Below, in pieces: positions 1 through 7,352 of a stretch of 64,000 nucleotides of DNA (its first letter is position 1; each line of letters starts with the position of its first letter). Where the stretch lies: the IMG/VR virus record IMGVR_UViG_3300008116_000004; one strand, written 5' to 3'. Below the pieces are notes generated by a model. It did not search any database, had not been told where the DNA came from, and saw only the letters and a program-made list of their open reading frames with translations. The DNA comes from a virus. The position numbers were made by a program, and so were the translations under genes.

Positions 1-1803
1 GATCTTCACACCTTCTTTTTTACCTTTAACCGCAATACAATCTAATTCAATAACGTTATAAGAACTCTTTACCTGATTAGCGGTTTCTGGTCCGAGGATG
101 ATCTGTACTCCATAGTTTTTTGATTGTCCTTCGAGTCTTGAGGCTAAATTAACATTATCCCCAAGGCAAGTATAATCAAAACGTTGTATACTACCCATGT
201 TTCCCACAACAACATTACCAGTATTGATACCCAATCCCATACCGAACGGGGGGACTCCCTCTTTGGCAATCTCATCATTAAACTCCTTCAACTTATCTAA
301 CATCTTGACTGCAGCTTCAACAGCATGTTTAGCATGCTGTGTATCATCAAGAGGTGCATTCCAAAATGCCATTTGTGCATCACCAATATACTTGTCAAGT
401 GTTCCGTTTGACTCTAAGATAGACTGAGTCATTGCAGTCATGTAACGATTCATTATCTTAGTAAGACCTTGAACGTCTGTACCGTAATGTTCAGATATAG
501 AAGTAAACCCGCGAACGTCAGTAAACATGATAGATAACTCTCTTGTCTCACCACCAAGTTGTAGAAGTTCTGGATTCTTCTGTAACTTCTCGACCATTGC
601 TGGTGATAGATATGTTCCAAATTGCTTCTTGATTTGTAACTTCTGTAGATACTCAGATATCATTTTCTGAGCAACAATCATAAAGTAAATTAGTGAACCA
701 GCTAATAGTATATAAGAAGAATCCCAAAGCTGGTTATAAGTTGTAAACAGATAGCTTTGTGTGTATGCTACTGCAGGAAACAATATTACATAAACTGGAA
801 CTGTCCAAAGTACAGGGAGTCTAGTAACTATTAATATGATAAGAAGACCAAGTAGTGCAAACGCTAATAGTTCTACAGTAGGTGCAATTGCAATACGTTC
901 TGGTGTTGTTCCAGCAAATACAGAAAGTAGTGCCTGTGCTTGTAGATCTTGAACAAATTGTTCACCATGAGGTGTGGCAACTACTGTAGAAACTCCAGAT
1001 GCAGACACACCTAGTATAACTAATTTACCTTCAACATCTTTTTGTTCTACATCTAAGAAATCTATATGCTTAAAACGGCTAGAAGGGTCAAGCCAAATAC
1101 GAGCATTAGCATCAGTGTTAATAGTCTTAAACTGTGGAATGCGTACAGCCTCGATACCTGCTTCTCCAGTTTTAATTTGGAACGATGGGTCATCTGTTAA
1201 TGTTCTTATTATTTCTAAAGGAAGGGAAGGATATAGTTGATCGCCAATTCTCACTACCATTGGCATACGTCTGATAACACCATCTATTTCTGGTGTTGAT
1301 GCAATAGTACCAACACCAGCAGCATTATCTGCAAATTGCTTTAACGGAGCAACAGCACCAGGCCAGCTAAAAGTATAGGGGAGAGGGTCAGCACCAATGG
1401 CAGAAAATCCTCTCCTAACAGCATCAGGTTTTTGGGTTTGGTTGGTAGGCACCTGCGCAAGTACGATACCCCCAGATCCCACAGATTTTGCAAATTCATT
1501 ATCGTGTCCGCTCCTATCGGGTTCTGAAAACAAAATAGGGAATACTATTACACCAGCTTGATAATGACGAAGACGTTCAATCATATCAGCAAACTCTTTA
1601 CGATCAATAGGCCACTGACCCAGCTTTTCGAGAGTCTTATCAGATACGTCTACAATTACAATATCTTCGTTTGTTGTTATCTCTTTACTTCGTAACGTAT
1701 AGTCAATAGACTTAAGTTCAAGAATTTGTACTGGATATGGATTCCAAACCTTAAGTGCTACTAATGCACCAAGTACAAGTAAAGAAATAAGAAGATTTTT
1801 CAT
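1..1803 (-). CDS. CHASE2-domain membrane adenylate cyclase (class III), 3' end runs off the window
   Basis: Absent from the ORF track; translated by hand from ATG at 1803. N-terminal TM, CHASE2 motifs (IVIVDVSDKTLEKLGQWPIDR, FPILFSEPDR), three TMs, then cyclase motifs ELSIMFTDVRGFT, DKYIGDAQMAFWNAP, GINTGNVVVGNMGS, DYTCLGDNVNLASRLEG. Confidence 0.93.
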   Translation of the reverse strand, partial: MKNLLISLLVLGALVALKVWNPYPVQILELKSIDYTLRSKEITTNEDIVIVDVSDKTLEKLGQWPIDRKEFADMIERLRHYQAGVIVFPILFSEPDRSGHDNEFAKSVGSGGIVLAQVPTNQTQKPDAVRRGFSAIGADPLPYTFSWPGAVAPLKQFADNAAGVGTIASTPEIDGVIRRMPMVVRIGDQLYPSLPLEIIRTLTDDPSFQIKTGEAGIEAVRIPQFKTINTDANARIWLDPSSRFKHIDFLDVEQKDVEGKLVILGVSASGVSTVVATPHGEQFVQDLQAQALLSVFAGTTPERIAIAPTVELLAFALLGLLIILIVTRLPVLWTVPVYVILFPAVAYTQSYLFTTYNQLWDSSYILLAGSLIYFMIVAQKMISEYLQKLQIKKQFGTYLSPAMVEKLQKNPELLQLGGETRELSIMFTDVRGFTSISEHYGTDVQGLTKIMNRYMTAMTQSILESNGTLDKYIGDAQMAFWNAPLDDTQHAKHAVEAAVKMLDKLKEFNDEIAKEGVPPFGMGLGINTGNVVVGNMGSIQRFDYTCLGDNVNLASRLEGQSKNYGVQIILGPETANQVKSSYNVIELDCIAVKGKKEGVKI

Positions 1804-2141
1804 TGTGTCTGGTTCACTATCAATGGATATGGATTACAAGATGATATGCCGCAGTACTGTTGTATAGAATAAGAAAGGTTAGAAGAACTATTCTGTGTAA
1901 CTGAAATATTATAGTTATTAAAGTTACCATATAATTCTATATTAGAACTATGATTTCCTCCACCTTGTTGATCTATAGAAACAGTACTGTTATTTAGGTC
2001 TGTTGCTAGAAAGTTTGATGTAGGATCTCCAATCTGAGTAGCAGTTATAGCATTACTATTGCCAGTCAGATTAATAATATTGCTTCCTGCATAACAAGGT
2101 GTAACTATTAGTAATAGAATTAAACTAATTATTTTTTCCAT
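1800..2141 (-). CDS. Small secreted curlin-repeat protein (CsgB-like)
   Basis: Probable start MEKIISL at 2141. Signal peptide followed by N-x-hydrophobic-x-hydrophobic-x-Q-x-G repeats (NSNAITATQIG, NSTVSIDQQGG, NISVTQ). Confidence 0.7.
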   Translation of the reverse strand: MEKIISLILLLIVTPCYAGSNIINLTGNSNAITATQIGDPTSNFLATDLNNSTVSIDQQGGGNHSSNIELYGNFNNYNISVTQNSSSNLSYSIQQYCGISSCNPYPLIVNQTQ

Positions 2142-2860
2142 AGGATTACTTCCATAGTTCCGTCCATATGCTCGACAATTGCTGAGCAAGTTTCGACCCA
2201 ATCCCCACAATTAAGATACGTAACTCCCATAATATCTCGTCTATTAGGATGATGAATATGCCCACAAACAATACCATCACACCCAACAGATTTTGCATAA
2301 TTGCAGAGAGTTTTTTCATAATCGCCTATAAAATTTACAGCTTTTTTGACTTTATATTTAAGCCAAGAACTAATAGACCACGGCTTAAATTTTAATTTAT
2401 TTCTTATTCTATTAATAAAAACATTTATCACTATGGATACATCATAAGCCCAGGATCCAAAATGAGATAACCATTTGGCGTGCTCTATAACAACATCAAA
2501 TTGATCACCATGTATGACAAGATACTTCTTACCATCTACTCCTATATGATAATCTTTATCTATTAATTTTATATTACCAAATTCATGATCGCCAAAACTT
2601 CTTAAAAATTCATCATGGTTACCAGGTATGTAAATTACTTCTGTACCTTTACGAGCCATTCTCATTAACTTCTGAATAACATCGTTATGAGTCTGAGGCC
2701 AATAAAAAGATTTATATAATGCCCAACCATCAATAATATCACCTACTAAGTATAATTTTTCACATTCAAATGTTTTAATAAATTCTAAAACTTGATTAGC
2801 TTGCGACATCTTAGTGCCAAGATGAATATCAGATATAAAAACTGTTTTATACTTGTTCAT
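2129..2860 (-). CDS. Calcineurin-like metallophosphoesterase (LpxH/YbbF-like family)
   Basis: Motifs SDIHLG, GDIIDGW, PGNHDE, HGDQFD, GHIH, NCGDWVE. Confidence 0.88.
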   Translation of the reverse strand: MNKYKTVFISDIHLGTKMSQANQVLEFIKTFECEKLYLVGDIIDGWALYKSFYWPQTHNDVIQKLMRMARKGTEVIYIPGNHDEFLRSFGDHEFGNIKLIDKDYHIGVDGKKYLVIHGDQFDVVIEHAKWLSHFGSWAYDVSIVINVFINRIRNKLKFKPWSISSWLKYKVKKAVNFIGDYEKTLCNYAKSVGCDGIVCGHIHHPNRRDIMGVTYLNCGDWVETCSAIVEHMDGTMEVILWKK

Positions 2861-3978
2861 AGTGATTGCTTTATTGTTATAGTTGTTGAACCAGCATTGT
2901 TTACAACTTGTTTAATTGATATGTTATCTTGAGTTAATTCGTAAGTTGTTGTATGAGTATCTGCCACGTTCAGTTCAGCATAATGATTGACATCTTCTCT
3001 GTATAATACTACATTGTTCATATCATCTACAAAATATTTAAGTCCTGCACCTTTATTATATCTATTATAGTTTGGAAGTAGTGAGTTAAACTCTTCTAAT
3101 TCACTTTGTAAGAATTGTGAACTTTGTGCATCTAAAACATTAAGCATAAAATCTTGATCTAAGAAATTAATATCTAATCTGTTGTTAATAAGATAATCTT
3201 TGTTCAATTCGTCATAAGCTAGAAAATCTACATTGAGGAAATCTTGATCAAGAAAGCTTTTAGTGGTTGTCATTTCATCTTGAGCTTTTTTAATTTCTCT
3301 TGGTGGTGTGACAATGAGAATATTATTAATTTGATTCTCGCTCAATTCTAGTATCACAGGTTTAGTAGGAAGTTTACCTCTTGTATCCACTGATGTAGCT
3401 TGGAATGGTTTAGTCAACCATACTTCACCAGCATCAGTCATAACAACTATTTGTCCTGTGATGCAATCTTTTTCAATGTCTCTGAAGCCGACAGGGCAAG
3501 AAGGTAAAAGAATAATAGTACTGCGACCAATCTCGTCAACAGTAGATGTAAAATCTGTACCTCTGACACCAATCGTAGCAGACGGCGTTTCAACCTTAAC
3601 TTGTTGTGGATCATTCTTTGCAATCTGTCCTGATGTATACTTGACTGTTCCTAAAGCAATCTTAACAGCTAGCTTACCTGCACCTTTGTTAGGATCATAC
3701 ACGAAGTTATCTATCACGAGTTTGCTTTGCTCGGTGATATGAACTTGTGTTTGATCCTCAAAAGTAATACCTGCCTTCGCATTAGCAGTAGTGACAGTAT
3801 CATCCATTTCTACTTTAGTACTAAGCTCGGAAGGTATTACTTCTTTGTTTCGCTTTATTTCTGTTGGACCAGTCTGTTCTGTAACAGTACCTATTGCAGC
3901 ATTAGTAGTTGCTGTTAATAGACATAGTGTTGCCAGAGCCAGTAATAGTCGCTGTAACGCTGCTATCAATTCCACCAC
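2857..3978 (-). CDS. Secreted/periplasmic FecR-domain protein
   Basis: Signal peptide, then FecR-type beta fold (ITFEDQTQVHITEQSKLVID, VETPSATIGVRGTDF). Confidence 0.85.
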   Translation of the reverse strand: MVELIAALQRLLLALATLCLLTATTNAAIGTVTEQTGPTEIKRNKEVIPSELSTKVEMDDTVTTANAKAGITFEDQTQVHITEQSKLVIDNFVYDPNKGAGKLAVKIALGTVKYTSGQIAKNDPQQVKVETPSATIGVRGTDFTSTVDEIGRSTIILLPSCPVGFRDIEKDCITGQIVVMTDAGEVWLTKPFQATSVDTRGKLPTKPVILELSENQINNILIVTPPREIKKAQDEMTTTKSFLDQDFLNVDFLAYDELNKDYLINNRLDINFLDQDFMLNVLDAQSSQFLQSELEEFNSLLPNYNRYNKGAGLKYFVDDMNNVVLYREDVNHYAELNVADTHTTTYELTQDNISIKQVVNNAGSTTITIKQSL

Positions 3979-4576
3979 CTTGATCGATGTTTACTGTATT
4001 TGTTGCACCTACTATAGTTAAATTAGCATTATGTCCACTAGTACTAGCAGCACCAGTTTGTCTTATTTGAACAGTGTTACCGTTACCACCAGAAATGTCA
4101 ACTGCTGATTGTGCACCTGATATTGCAGTTGAATCATTGTTGATAGTTACATCATTATTATCTGAATTAATATCGATAGTAGATGTACTTGAAGATGTAT
4201 CAAAATTGCGACTAATTATATTACCATTACCGTAAACTGTATCTGTCATAGTAATCATAGAACAAGTAACACACAGTAAACTTAAATCATTAAAGTTACC
4301 TGTAAATGTGTGAGTCAATGTGTTACCGTTACCGTCTACTGAGTAGGCAGCTGTATTGTTATTACCTATCTGATCTATCGTTATGGCATTAGAGTTGCCA
4401 TTTATTATCGCGTGATTTGTTGCATCACCAATGCTGTTACCAAGTCCAGTTTGTGTAAAATTAATTGTTGAACTGCTACCAATCTGATCAACTATAATAC
4501 TGTTACTCGCAGCATATGCATATTGAACCATAACAAAGAATGACAAAATCATTGCCAATCTTGTTATTAGTTTCAT
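3902..4576 (-). CDS. Secreted curlin-repeat protein (CsgA/CsgB-like)
   Basis: Signal peptide; many curlin-type repeats (NSIIVDQIG, NAITIDQIG, NTVQIRQTG, NTVNIDQGG); N/G/T/I-rich; adjacent to csgG. Confidence 0.75.
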   Translation of the reverse strand: MKLITRLAMILSFFVMVQYAYAASNSIIVDQIGSSSTINFTQTGLGNSIGDATNHAIINGNSNAITIDQIGNNNTAAYSVDGNGNTLTHTFTGNFNDLSLLCVTCSMITMTDTVYGNGNIISRNFDTSSSTSTIDINSDNNDVTINNDSTAISGAQSAVDISGGNGNTVQIRQTGAASTSGHNANLTIVGATNTVNIDQGGGIDSSVTATITGSGNTMSINSNY

Positions 4577-4579
4577 TCC

Positions 4580-5380
4580 TTACCTCTTTTCTGACCTATG
4601 TTTCCATAATTGTTTTCTCATACCCTCACGGACCATCTGTACTACTGCTTCTTCTATTGCAACTCGAACTGCATATGTTGTAGGCTCATTGATATTATTA
4701 CCAGCCTCAAACTCCACAGTAGTAGTATTCTGGTCTACAAACTTTAACAAATTTCCATTAGTACCTGTGCTAAGAATAGTCTTAGATACTCCCGTTGATA
4801 ATAATATCTCACCAGTATTAATGGAAACTAATCTCAATACTACAGTCACTTCATCTTTACGGTATTGCTGTGATGCACCTATTCCTAATAAACGTGCACC
4901 AGCACCTCCAGATGAAACATTACTATCATAACCTACCACACCACCTTCGATCATAATACCTGCAACGATTAAAGGTTGTAGTGGCTTTGCTTCTTTACCT
5001 TCGTATACTTCTCTCTGACTCTTAATTAGTTGTCTCTCTTTAACTAGGTTATCTAAATTAACTCTCTCAACAACTTTAAACCAAGTCCCACCTCCAGCAT
5101 CCTGGAGAGCCTTTATCATAAACACTTCTGAACCTTGCGATACAGCTGTGCTAAGATCAGCAAAGCGATCATTAGGTTTTCTTTGTCCGGTCAAATCACC
5201 AAACTTGTAAACAGCAACTGGGATAGGATCACTATCAGGTGGCTGTAAATTTACTAAATCATTCTGACGCTTTTTGTAGATAGGAGTAGGCATTTCTGTC
5301 TTTAATTCGTCCCTATAATCTCTAGGCACAGAATTGCATCCTACTAGTAAAAGCGATGCTAAAATTATAATATATTTCAT
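4580..5380 (-). CDS. csgG: Curli secretion channel lipoprotein CsgG
   Basis: Lipobox LVGC; VAVYKFGDLTGQRKP, STAVSQG, WFKVVERVNLDNLVKERQLI, IEGGVVGYDSN, YRKDEVTVVLRLVS. Confidence 0.93.
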   Translation of the reverse strand: MKYIIILASLLLVGCNSVPRDYRDELKTEMPTPIYKKRQNDLVNLQPPDSDPIPVAVYKFGDLTGQRKPNDRFADLSTAVSQGSEVFMIKALQDAGGGTWFKVVERVNLDNLVKERQLIKSQREVYEGKEAKPLQPLIVAGIMIEGGVVGYDSNVSSGGAGARLLGIGASQQYRKDEVTVVLRLVSINTGEILLSTGVSKTILSTGTNGNLLKFVDQNTTTVEFEAGNNINEPTTYAVRVAIEEAVVQMVREGMRKQLWKHRSEKR

Positions 5381-5814
5381 ATTGCAAGACTTCCCAAAGG
5401 AACAGTTATGTCAGTTGTCAAACCACCAGCGTCAGTTATTATTAAATGTATACCATCTGCAGTTGATTCCCAGAATATATTAGAACCAGCAACATCAAAA
5501 GACCCTGTTGTTAATCCTTGATCTGAAAATAACTGCTCAGCAATTTTCTGAGATATAGTAGCGTATATTCTACTCTCTAAGTTATTAAGAAACTTAGCTA
5601 GATTAGTATTTTTAGCATCTGCAGCAGCTTTCGCTTCTGCAGCTTTTTTATCCTCTATAATCTTCATCTTACGAGTGTACTCTTGATTTTCTATCGTAAG
5701 AACATGCGAAGACCACCCTTCACCAGAGAATGAAGGGTTATTAAACTTGAACACCATCTCAGAAGCTGAGGCTGGAGTTATTATCAAAAAACCTGCTAAA
5801 ACGTATCTAATCAT
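5377..5814 (-). CDS. csgF: Curli assembly component CsgF
   Basis: Start MIRYVL at 5814 after GGAGG; mature N-terminus SEMVFKFNNPSFSG resembles the CsgF FQFRNPNFGG motif; adjacent to csgG. Confidence 0.88.
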   Translation of the reverse strand: MIRYVLAGFLIITPASASEMVFKFNNPSFSGEGWSSHVLTIENQEYTRKMKIIEDKKAAEAKAAADAKNTNLAKFLNNLESRIYATISQKIAEQLFSDQGLTTGSFDVAGSNIFWESTADGIHLIITDAGGLTTDITVPLGSLAI

Positions 5815-5828
5815 AAATACCTCCGTGA

Positions 5829-5836
5829 TATTTATA
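5829..5836 (-). promoter_or_regulatory. T4-type late promoter TATAAATA upstream of csgF
   Basis: Exact TATAAATA on the minus strand 14 nt upstream of the csgF start; gp55 is encoded in this window. Confidence 0.75.
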
Positions 5837-5883
5837 AATTTCAATATGAAAATTTAATGAATTTAATTGATGGAGATATTATA

Positions 5884-6165
5884 ATGGCTAAATTAGATGA
5901 ATTAACTGCAAAAGATGTATCAGAGGCTCGTTCACTTCACTCAGAATTAGTAAAGAAGGGTGATGCAACTGCAAGCCATTTTATTTACTGGTATAGTTGG
6001 TTTTGGGCTATAAGCTCCACTGTTTACTTTTTTTGTGTAACTTTTGTACAGTTACCTGAGGGTGGTAGAGATTTTGCAAATATTATTTTAGGATTCTTGC
6101 TTGGTACTGCGGTAGCTACCATCATAGGATTTTTCTATGGTAATAGCGAAAAAGGAGGCTCTTAA
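5884..6165 (+). CDS. Small two-TM membrane protein (holin-like candidate)
   Basis: Start MAKLDEL after GGAG; two hydrophobic helices ending IIGFFYGNS. Confidence 0.5.
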   Translation: MAKLDELTAKDVSEARSLHSELVKKGDATASHFIYWYSWFWAISSTVYFFCVTFVQLPEGGRDFANIILGFLLGTAVATIIGFFYGNSEKGGS

Positions 6166-6482
6166 TGAGTACTAAAACTTTAGAAAAAGGTTCCAAGTAT
6201 AATCAATTTGACGTTGATGGTGATGGAACAGTTACTGATGACGAAATGACTAAAGCACAAGCTATGATCGATGCTGAAAATAAAGACAAAAAAGAAGACC
6301 AGCTTCGTTCCATGGCATGGGTTGCAATGGGAAGCATGGTCTTCTTTACTTTAGCTTTATTTACACCACTTGTTAGCATAGAGAGACTTGGTGCATTAGA
6401 TAATCTATTACAGATGTTCTATATTGCACAAGCTGGTGTAGTTGCTACATTCTTTGGTGCTAATGCCTATATGAGCAAGTAA
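6165..6482 (+). CDS. Membrane protein with N-terminal EF-hand-like loop
   Basis: DVDGDGTVTDDE loop followed by two TM segments. Confidence 0.55.
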   Translation: MSTKTLEKGSKYNQFDVDGDGTVTDDEMTKAQAMIDAENKDKKEDQLRSMAWVAMGSMVFFTLALFTPLVSIERLGALDNLLQMFYIAQAGVVATFFGANAYMSK

Positions 6483-7276: not shown

Positions 7277-7352
7277 TGGTAGACGAGGAGGGATTCGAAC
7301 CCCCGATAAGACCGTTATGAGCGGCCGGCCTTGACCACTTGGCGACTCGTCT
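7277..7352 (-). tRNA. tRNA with CAU anticodon, probably tRNA-Ile2 (lysidine type)
   Basis: AGACGAG/CTCGTCT acceptor stem, A discriminator, encoded CCA, GGTTCGAATCC T-arm; anticodon arm GGCCG-CTCATAA-CGGTC resembles alphaproteobacterial Ile2 as I recall it. Confidence 0.9.

Follow-up and report, generated by a model that had tools for sequence, protein, structure and literature searches.

A minus-strand operon at positions 1-5836 of the window, by which we mean the whole 64,000-nucleotide stretch analysed here from IMG/VR virus record IMGVR_UViG_3300008116_000004, joins genes for curli secretion to genes encoding a FecR-fold protein and a CHASE2 adenylate cyclase. We favour, at a probability of about 55%, the reading that this is a viral curli module, probably expressed late, whose six-gene core is made up of a secretion half and a sensing half. 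The block almost certainly belongs to the viral curli, or type VIII secretion system (T8SS), module already published for pelagiphages. The core genes kept the same order in every locus long enough to show it, and the same six genes recur as a discrete cassette in two bacterial contigs.

Genes were called by combining an open reading frame (ORF) listing with Pfam, NCBIfam and PHROG scans. A first-pass annotation of this DNA had described seven tightly coupled minus-strand genes in the order csgF, csgG, curlin A, FecR, metallophosphoesterase, curlin B and CHASE2 cyclase. Their number, order and place were borne out by the ORF listing, adjacent genes overlapping by 4-77 nt or being separated by a gap of 3 nt, and the scans agreed with the proposed identities, that of curlin B being the weak one. 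The features of the region, from the 5' end of the operon, are as follows (all on the minus strand; aa, amino acids).

5829-5836, minus strand: TATAAATA box, similar to a T4-type late promoter, 15 nt 5' of the csgF ATG, with GGAGG as a ribosome-binding site in between
5377-5814, minus strand: csgF (start ATG at 5814), predicted exported curli assembly factor capping CsgG; Pfam PF10614
4580-5380, minus strand: csgG, predicted outer-membrane lipoprotein channel; Pfam CsgG E 8.5e-51, 172.7 bits
3902-4576, minus strand: curlin A, secreted curlin-repeat protein of 224 aa, likely fibre subunit; Pfam Curlin_rpt and profile search
2857-3978, minus strand: exported FecR-fold protein; Pfam FecR E 5.8e-12, 46.3 bits against a cut-off of 24
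2129-2860, minus strand: cytoplasmic metallophosphoesterase, LpxH/PlcP-like; Pfam Metallophos E 1.9e-13
1800-2141, minus strand: curlin B, small secreted curlin-like protein of 113 aa; the ATG at 2141 was preferred over a 136-aa frame starting at TTG
1-1803, minus strand: CHASE2 receptor adenylate cyclase; Pfam CHASE2 E 1.9e-38, Guanylate_cyc E 3.4e-21

Products of the operon and its probable promoter

The csgG product aligned over its full length with E. coli CsgG (3x2r; residues 4-262, E 6e-46), and its lipobox cysteine, Cys15, was unchanged across 13 relatives. CsgF matched nearly the whole of its Pfam profile (PF10614, E 1.7e-17; 64.2 bits, the cut-off being 25.8; positions 7-132 of a profile of 132) and also phrog_35372 (E 2e-44), and comparison with the solved CsgF chains gave no significant sequence match. 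The C-terminal half of CsgF (5377-5570, minus strand) had looked lectin-like, since phmmer paired it with RSL fucose lectins. Those matches turned out to be sums over tandem repeats in which each single stretch scored E 1.6-2.4; as these values are not significant, we rejected the lectin reading and consider the resemblance probably due to chance.

Curlin A, taken as a single sequence, reached E 4.6e-4 with Pfam Curlin_rpt (20.5 bits, 0.2 below the cut-off of 20.7), and a profile built from 27 of its homologues matched, in the PDB, 8c50, which is a curlin-repeat protein (E 3.8e-8), and 8enq, which is CsgA of E. coli (E 0.008). The curlin A hidden Markov model (HMM) also matched most of the ORFs that encode a second solenoid between the FecR and cyclase genes of related loci (E 1e-26 to 1e-4). 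The members of this second family range from 93 to 554 aa, carry signal peptides, consist to ~50% of N, S, T, G and Q, and share Q/G motifs, two Cys residues forming a pair and the ending NQ(Y). Searched with the curlin A profile, a relative 87% identical to curlin B scored E 1e-4, a weak indication that curlin B may be the short end of this length-variable family.

The only hydrophobic segment of the FecR-fold protein is N-terminal, resembles a signal peptide and looks cleavable. In an AlphaFold2 (AF2) model, residues 30-210 reached a predicted local distance difference test score of ~88, and a beta domain spans about residues 28-215. Foldseek paired the model with the C-terminal cell-surface signalling domain of PupR (6ovk, E 2.6e-4, probability 1.00) and with BDI_1681 (4m0h, E about 3e-4, probability 1.00). 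The C-terminal third was modelled poorly and includes a run of acidic LDxDFL motifs that AF2 left unfolded. Beyond the signal peptide, the protein has no membrane anchor, and it lacks a cytoplasmic anti-sigma domain; Pfam and NCBIfam scans of the neighbouring ORFs found no extracytoplasmic function (ECF) sigma factor and no TonB-dependent transducer. Judged from its sequence and modelled fold, this is a FecR-fold protein and not a FecR anti-sigma regulator, and nothing in this analysis backs a role as an iron-citrate regulator.

The extreme C-terminus of the FecR-fold protein follows the pattern G-x4-I-x-I-x-Q (region 2857-3050, minus strand, and the same region in 25 homologues), which resembles the last strand of curlin A; curlin B ends in h-x-h-N-Q. 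When the curlin A HMM was run on the last 45 residues of the FecR-fold protein, the scores were slightly above those of shuffled sequences (mean z 1.5). With scores so close to the shuffles, we do not accept a curlin-like repeat here as an established feature and keep it as a lead.

The cyclase gene runs off the window: 601 aa are encoded, against 676 aa in a 97% identical relative (L005), so that ~75 residues lie beyond the edge. The CHASE2 domain (PF05226) scored 132.9 bits over residues 15-320, and hydrophobic segments at residues 1-23, 303-347 and 364-383 fit a layout of one transmembrane segment, a periplasmic CHASE2 domain, three transmembrane segments and a class III catalytic domain. 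The catalytic set is intact (D429, K471, D475, T545, N552 and R556) and was kept in 23 relatives, with T, S or D at 545 and N or S at 552. As the first-pass annotation had pointed out, the substrate positions are those of the ATP type, Lys (K471) and Thr (T545). The closest solved relatives are the adenylate cyclases CyaB (3r5g) and CyaC (1wc0), with E values of 1e-50 to 1e-38. By these residue criteria the protein would be a class III adenylate cyclase and its product cyclic AMP (cAMP).

The window derives from a T4-like marine myophage, as it encodes a gp23-type capsid protein, scaffold, portal, sheath, large terminase, helicase and an SbcC-like protein. Its major capsid protein is ~61% identical to the counterparts in Pelagibacter phage HTVC008M and Methylophilales phage Melnitz, and the GenBank phage collection contained no DNA nearly identical to the window. 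The region marked in the first-pass annotation ends at 5836, precisely the edge of the TATAAATA box. All seven copies of this box in the window lie on the minus (coding) strand, and at least five of the seven are located 15-47 nt ahead of minus-strand ORF starts, including those of the portal, scaffold and tail fibre genes. The operon is thus probably expressed late in infection, as judged from where the box lies.

Upstream of the box, two small ORFs diverge on the plus strand, at 5857-6165 (phrog_1544) and 6165-6482 (phrog_27150). Both belong to families of unknown function, the second gave a weak, sub-threshold EF-hand match, and together they occupy the place where membrane or 'histidine kinase' genes have been reported before csgF in other phages. 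A tRNA-Met (CAT) gene lies at 7277-7352 on the minus strand, 1.4 kb upstream of the operon.

Conservation of the core and its copies in bacteria

A search of IMG/VR with CsgG as the query returned 54 loci, in which each gene was counted where the contig was long enough. csgF was upstream of csgG in 53/53 cases, a FecR gene followed csgFG in 40/40, and the cyclase gene was present in 29/29 (28 on the same strand). In the reverse direction, a metagenome scan with the cyclase as the query gave 80 low-GC loci, and the order was read in those with at least 7.9 kb upstream; all 25 had csgF-csgG-curlin-FecR-cyclase. The annotations of HTVC008M and Melnitz show the same gene order. FecR and the cyclase, which the first-pass annotation had linked to csgFG from this one operon, are thus conserved beside these genes in both search directions.

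Two contigs from metagenome-assembled genomes (MAGs) of Caulobacteraceae, with a GC content of 52-57%, hold the six-gene block among ordinary bacterial genes (L059:8412-14366, on contig CANGEH010000001.1, and L061:9591-15529). The stretch common to the two runs from csgF to the cyclase stop and no further, covering 5.97 kb at 87% nucleotide identity, and the flanks are unrelated. Because the shared stretch is limited to the six core genes, these genes move as one discrete cassette. In a quick tree of CsgG, built from this one protein and rooted on five true curli CsgGs as outgroups, the bacterial copies were placed inside the phage clade (Shimodaira-Hasegawa-like approximate likelihood ratio test, SH-aLRT, 99), next to the phage loci L047, L039 and L043. 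This nesting suggests that the cassette moved from phage to bacterium, a direction that we hold loosely. When genomes of the class and of the order were sampled for close homologues of the bacterial FecR and cyclase, 1/401 had them in either sample, and that one was the query genome. Cyclases 55-60% identical to the one in L061 are also encoded on further long contigs (P0123, P0149 and P0163).

We also considered the possibility that the module originated from a bacterial curli locus with FecR and cyclase genes already in place, and rejected it, as most of the apparently bacterial matches were mis-binned, low-GC phage contigs. The true curli loci nearest in CsgG sequence have neither gene; that of Qipengyuania (L071) consists of a giant curlin, csgF and csgG, followed by an RND pump. 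The mis-binned T4-like phage contigs, in the ranges L057-L068, L074 and L075, had been assigned to MAGs of Pelagibacter, Rhodobacteraceae, Flavobacteriaceae, Polynucleobacter, Maricaulis and Sphingobacteriales, and the bin named 'Rhodobacteraceae bacterium Water_Bin34' contains nine T4-type capsid genes. Taxon labels from such bins are therefore not to be taken as host or origin. A second rejected candidate was a cAMP phosphodiesterase partner in L061, an Icc/Rv0805-like Metallophos gene upstream of csgF. We dismissed it as a chance neighbour: it is unrelated to the phosphoesterase of the window, the cassette does not include it, and neither L059 nor any phage locus has it.

The metallophosphoesterase, which the first-pass annotation had counted as a member of its circuit, behaved differently from the core genes. 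Among the curli loci it was found in the window, L003, L006 and L047 only; it is missing from relatives ~90% identical (L004, L005 and L008), and in the related phages L112, L113 and L116 it occupies another genome position with no curli genes nearby. Counting all records, phage-borne copies were seen in the window, L003, L006, L047 and L112-L122, at two genome positions in related phages. The protein carries no export signal. It falls in the LpxH-like branch but does not qualify as LpxH by sequence: it scored below the NCBIfam cut-offs (59.4 against 134 bits for PRK05340, 46 against 190 bits for TIGR01854), and its GNHD stands opposite the GNRD of P. aeruginosa LpxH, the enzyme family that supplied all of its PDB matches, full-length as they were.

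The search for relatives of the phosphoesterase gave thousands at 64-72% identity. In the order of the Pelagibacter MAGs (SAR11), 37/121 sampled genomes have a single-copy homologue, 51-59% identical, located directly upstream of a GT4 (agt-like) glycosyltransferase gene. This is the plcP-agt arrangement published for SAR11 strain HTCC7211, in which PlcP is the phospholipase C that acts when lipids are remodelled under phosphorus stress (Sebastian et al. 2016, PMC4796936); in that study the SAR11 gene was used to complement a plcP mutant of Phaeobacter MED193. The SAR11-order homologues share that context, whereas the gene in the window has no adjacent glycosyltransferase; the copy in L047 has a GT2 gene beside it. 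We consider the protein most likely a host-like auxiliary PlcP-type phospholipase C, and we read its gene as a separately acquired mobile insert, outside the conserved core and outside any circuit. No report of PlcP in phages was found in the literature searched; if confirmed, the insert would be an auxiliary gene by which a phage takes part in remodelling lipids under phosphorus stress.

The space between FecR and the cyclase is a hot spot for insertions, having received PlcP-like, NifU-like and GT2 genes. The NifU_N/IscU-like gene (142 aa, E 1.9e-37; L016:13355-13783, plus strand) lies between the second curlin and the cyclase, and an insert of the same kind is present at the same position in L015, L017, L018, L020, L035, L037 and L048, all of one phage clade. 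The GT2 glycosyltransferase gene is that of L047.

A proposed secretion half, a proposed sensing half and the rival readings

In the reading that we favour, the CsgG lipoprotein would form a channel in the outer membrane, capped by CsgF, and two Sec-exported curlin-repeat proteins, A and the shorter B, would pass through it and most likely form amyloid-like fibres on the infected cell. In the sensing half, the soluble periplasmic FecR-fold protein would work with the CHASE2 domain of the inner-membrane cyclase, so that a periplasmic or envelope cue would be turned into cytoplasmic cAMP, as in bacterial FecR+CHASE2 pairs. Since such pairs recur in bacteria, the phage block can be read as a curli secretion half joined to a FecR/CHASE2 sensing half. 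The invariant order, the location of the FecR gene between the curlin genes and the behaviour of the block as a cassette argue that the two halves may act as one system, for which we see the odds as about even. Candidates for the cue would be curlin export or the state of fibre assembly, or else something entering through the CsgE-less pore; that it is the curlin or secretion state is a tentative idea, more probably wrong than right. A prediction of the complex between the periplasmic CHASE2 domain (residues 21-310) and the FecR-fold domain (27-215), made from alignments, scored 0.27 against a mark of 0.32, in a run without controls, and weighs neither for nor against such a contact.

The first-pass annotation had gone further and seen in the operon a complete trans-envelope circuit. 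Signalling from an outer-membrane protein to CHASE2 cyclases has a precedent in Sinorhizobium meliloti, where CyaK, CyaD1 and CyaD2 depend on the outer-membrane protein NsrA for their input (PMC7529298), and to this extent the idea is reasonable. It is unproven, however, and 'complete' overstates it; no CAP-type receptor for the cAMP was found in related phages or in most of the genomes sampled from the likely host order.

Several results count against the reading that we favour. The cAMP would lack a familiar reader: five related phage records, including one that is 99% complete, gave no match to a CAP-type cNMP_binding domain, and the domain was found in just 3/81 sampled genomes of the order of the Pelagibacter MAGs, the likely host order. 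With CAP-type receptors absent from the related phages and from most sampled genomes of that order, a non-CAP effector of cAMP would be needed. On the side of secretion, the loop that follows TGQ in the phage CsgG reads RKPNDRFADL where E. coli CsgG (3x2r) has FKPYPASNF, the stretch that we take to be the constriction loop, so the residues there have been replaced; the phage pore is probably CsgG-like with a lumen different from that of E. coli. As the first-pass annotation had noted for csgE and csgD, accessories are missing as well, the Pfam and NCBIfam scans finding no CsgE, CsgC or CsgD among the nine ORFs of positions 1-6482. The replaced loop and the missing CsgE mean that canonical curli export is not guaranteed. 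The three accessories are absent not only from the phage modules but from alphaproteobacterial curli loci as well (PMC9599517), so they are not strictly defining for curli. The evidence for the short curlin B is weak (NCBIfam CsgB, E 0.002), and no clumping of Melnitz-infected cells was seen (Buchholz et al., PMC9004378). The total of TATAAATA boxes in the window is no higher than expected by chance in AT-rich DNA, so the argument for a late promoter is one of position. Finally, the S. meliloti FecR-domain protein SMc02177 is reported to be dispensable for signal perception by CHASE2 cyclases (PMC5498481).

The two halves could instead be independent functions that travel together, the curli fibres serving for aggregation ('sibling capture') or for shielding against other phages, and FecR with the cyclase forming a separate device that raises cAMP, manipulates the host and answers an unrelated environmental cue. 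We think this unlikely but well worth weighing. It would fit the absence of FecR and cyclase from the bacterial curli loci nearest in CsgG, such as that of Qipengyuania, the existence of bacterial FecR+CHASE2 pairs without curli genes, and the unrelated inserts received by the FecR-cyclase gap; in podophage modules, moreover, the second curlin and the cyclase are reported to be missing more often (Wittmers et al., PMC9599517). Independent functions do not, however, explain readily why the order was invariant in every locus long enough, whichever gene served as the query, why the edges of the bacterial cassette coincide exactly with csgF and the cyclase stop, or why the FecR gene stands between two curlin genes and not beside the cyclase only. 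A different reading is that of a repurposed pore. CsgG and CsgF without CsgE would make a gated hole, similar to a pinholin or secretin, as Buchholz et al. proposed together with structural modelling (PMC9004378), or else an uptake route; the curlins would act as plugs, and FecR and the cyclase would time the opening or lysis. The replaced CsgG residues, the missing CsgE, the late-promoter box ahead of the operon and the lack of aggregation in Melnitz cultures (PMC9004378) are in line with it. We nevertheless judge it improbable: it has no experimental support, a pore confined to the outer membrane cannot by itself depolarise the inner one, and the block always includes two conserved curlin-repeat proteins that carry signal peptides, together with CsgF, whose known role is the anchoring of curli fibres (PMC7029224).

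The module might also be an envelope tripwire in phage-phage conflict, in which the fibres and FecR would sense superinfection or damage and the cyclase product would trigger a membrane effector, exclusion or early lysis, as in Pycsar. In favour of this is a gene for PycTM, a Pycsar effector, in the bacterial copy L059 (14809-15402, plus strand; Pfam 87.6 bits, PADLOC E 9.6e-18), ~440 nt past the cyclase, on the same strand and with no other cyclase nearby; a non-CAP effector would in any case be needed. The gene is a single observation, however: the shared cassette does not include it, and it was seen neither in L061 nor in the 5 related phage records or the 80 metagenome loci. The cyclase matches PycC models over the generic catalytic core that such enzymes share, which does not make it a member of Pycsar. 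Pycsar cyclases make cCMP or cUMP, whereas the substrate residues here are of the ATP type. In its Pycsar-like form the tripwire is the least probable of the readings considered. A tripwire in which a non-canonical membrane or phage effector reads cAMP, setting the time of lysis or excluding rivals, is also a long shot, for which the PycTM gene of L059 and the curlin-like last strand of the FecR-fold protein, which could dock onto curlin subunits, are weak hints.

A curli module with a sensing half, as we favour it, would be of wide consequence, as SAR11 and OM43, the hosts of such phages, are among the most abundant cells of the ocean. The viral module is expressed in metatranscriptomes and was present at all 65 GOV2 stations, that is, at every station surveyed, and it gives infected cells an envelope structure foreign to the host lineage, which is reported to have no curli genes (PMC9599517). 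Taking FecR as a partner of CHASE2 offers a concrete, testable model, from periplasmic cue to cAMP, and the apparent absence of CAP-type receptors sharpens the question of what reads the cAMP. The movement of the six-gene cassette into bacterial chromosomes argues for a joint function, and the bacterial setting is more tractable for experiments.

Comparison with known systems

The first-pass annotation knew csgF and csgG from aquatic T4-like phages, but it overestimated the novelty of the linked unit. The csgFG 'curli operon' was first noticed by Zaragoza-Solas et al. 2020 (PMC7029224) and discussed by Buchholz et al. 2022 (PMC9004378), in both cases with no mention of FecR or a cyclase. The whole block, with CsgF, CsgG, CsgA/B, FecR, a second CsgA/B and an adenylate cyclase, was then published for Pelagibacter podo- and myophages (Wittmers et al. 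2022, PMC9599517), and it is annotated in HTVC008M and Melnitz. The operon of the window has the gene order of this pelagiphage module, with identities to HTVC008M and Melnitz of 39-48% for CsgF, CsgG, FecR and the cyclase and of 29-30% for curlin A. It differs by the insertion of the PlcP/LpxH-like phosphoesterase, which separates FecR from a second curlin that is very short here (113 aa), and by the two small plus-strand ORFs ahead of csgF in place of a histidine-kinase-like gene. In the published account CHASE2 is named 0 times, FecR is taken to regulate iron, and bacterial T8SS operons are stated not to contain FecR and the cyclase (PMC9599517); by contrast, the block is present in its entirety, with both of these genes, in the two Caulobacteraceae MAGs. 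To the published module we add the CHASE2 sensor, the pairing of FecR with CHASE2, the bacterial cassette, the PlcP-like insert and the absence of CAP-type receptors.

With bacterial curli systems (E. coli CsgBAC/CsgDEFG; Qipengyuania L071) the phage block shares the CsgG channel, CsgF and curlin-repeat substrates with Sec signals. It differs from them in having no CsgE, CsgC or CsgD, in the replaced CsgG loop, in its divergent subunits and in the embedded FecR and CHASE2 cyclase genes. With the FecR/PupR regulators the phage protein has in common the fold of the periplasmic domain (PupR 6ovk; Pfam FecR), whereas their anti-sigma domain and membrane anchor are lacking.

The sensing half resembles gene pairs known from bacteria. 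In Burkholderiales and P. aeruginosa, a LysM-FecR protein is paired with a CHASE2 histidine kinase ('BiofilmReg', PMC5192318), and in S. meliloti the gene for SMc02177 adjoins that of the CHASE2 adenylate cyclase CyaD1 (SMc02176; PMC5498481). We found FecR next to CHASE2 in two further alphaproteobacterial loci, L081 and L101. These pairs have no curli genes and possess a reader of their own, the Crp-like Clr or a response regulator; what they share with the phage block is an exported FecR-fold protein beside a membrane protein with a periplasmic CHASE2 domain. The likeness is greatest for the S. meliloti pair, the output of which is likewise a class III adenylate cyclase and the input of which requires an outer-membrane protein. 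Because FecR with CHASE2 is a known bacterial gene pair, the phage FecR is, by analogy, more likely a sensor partner of CHASE2 than an iron regulator.

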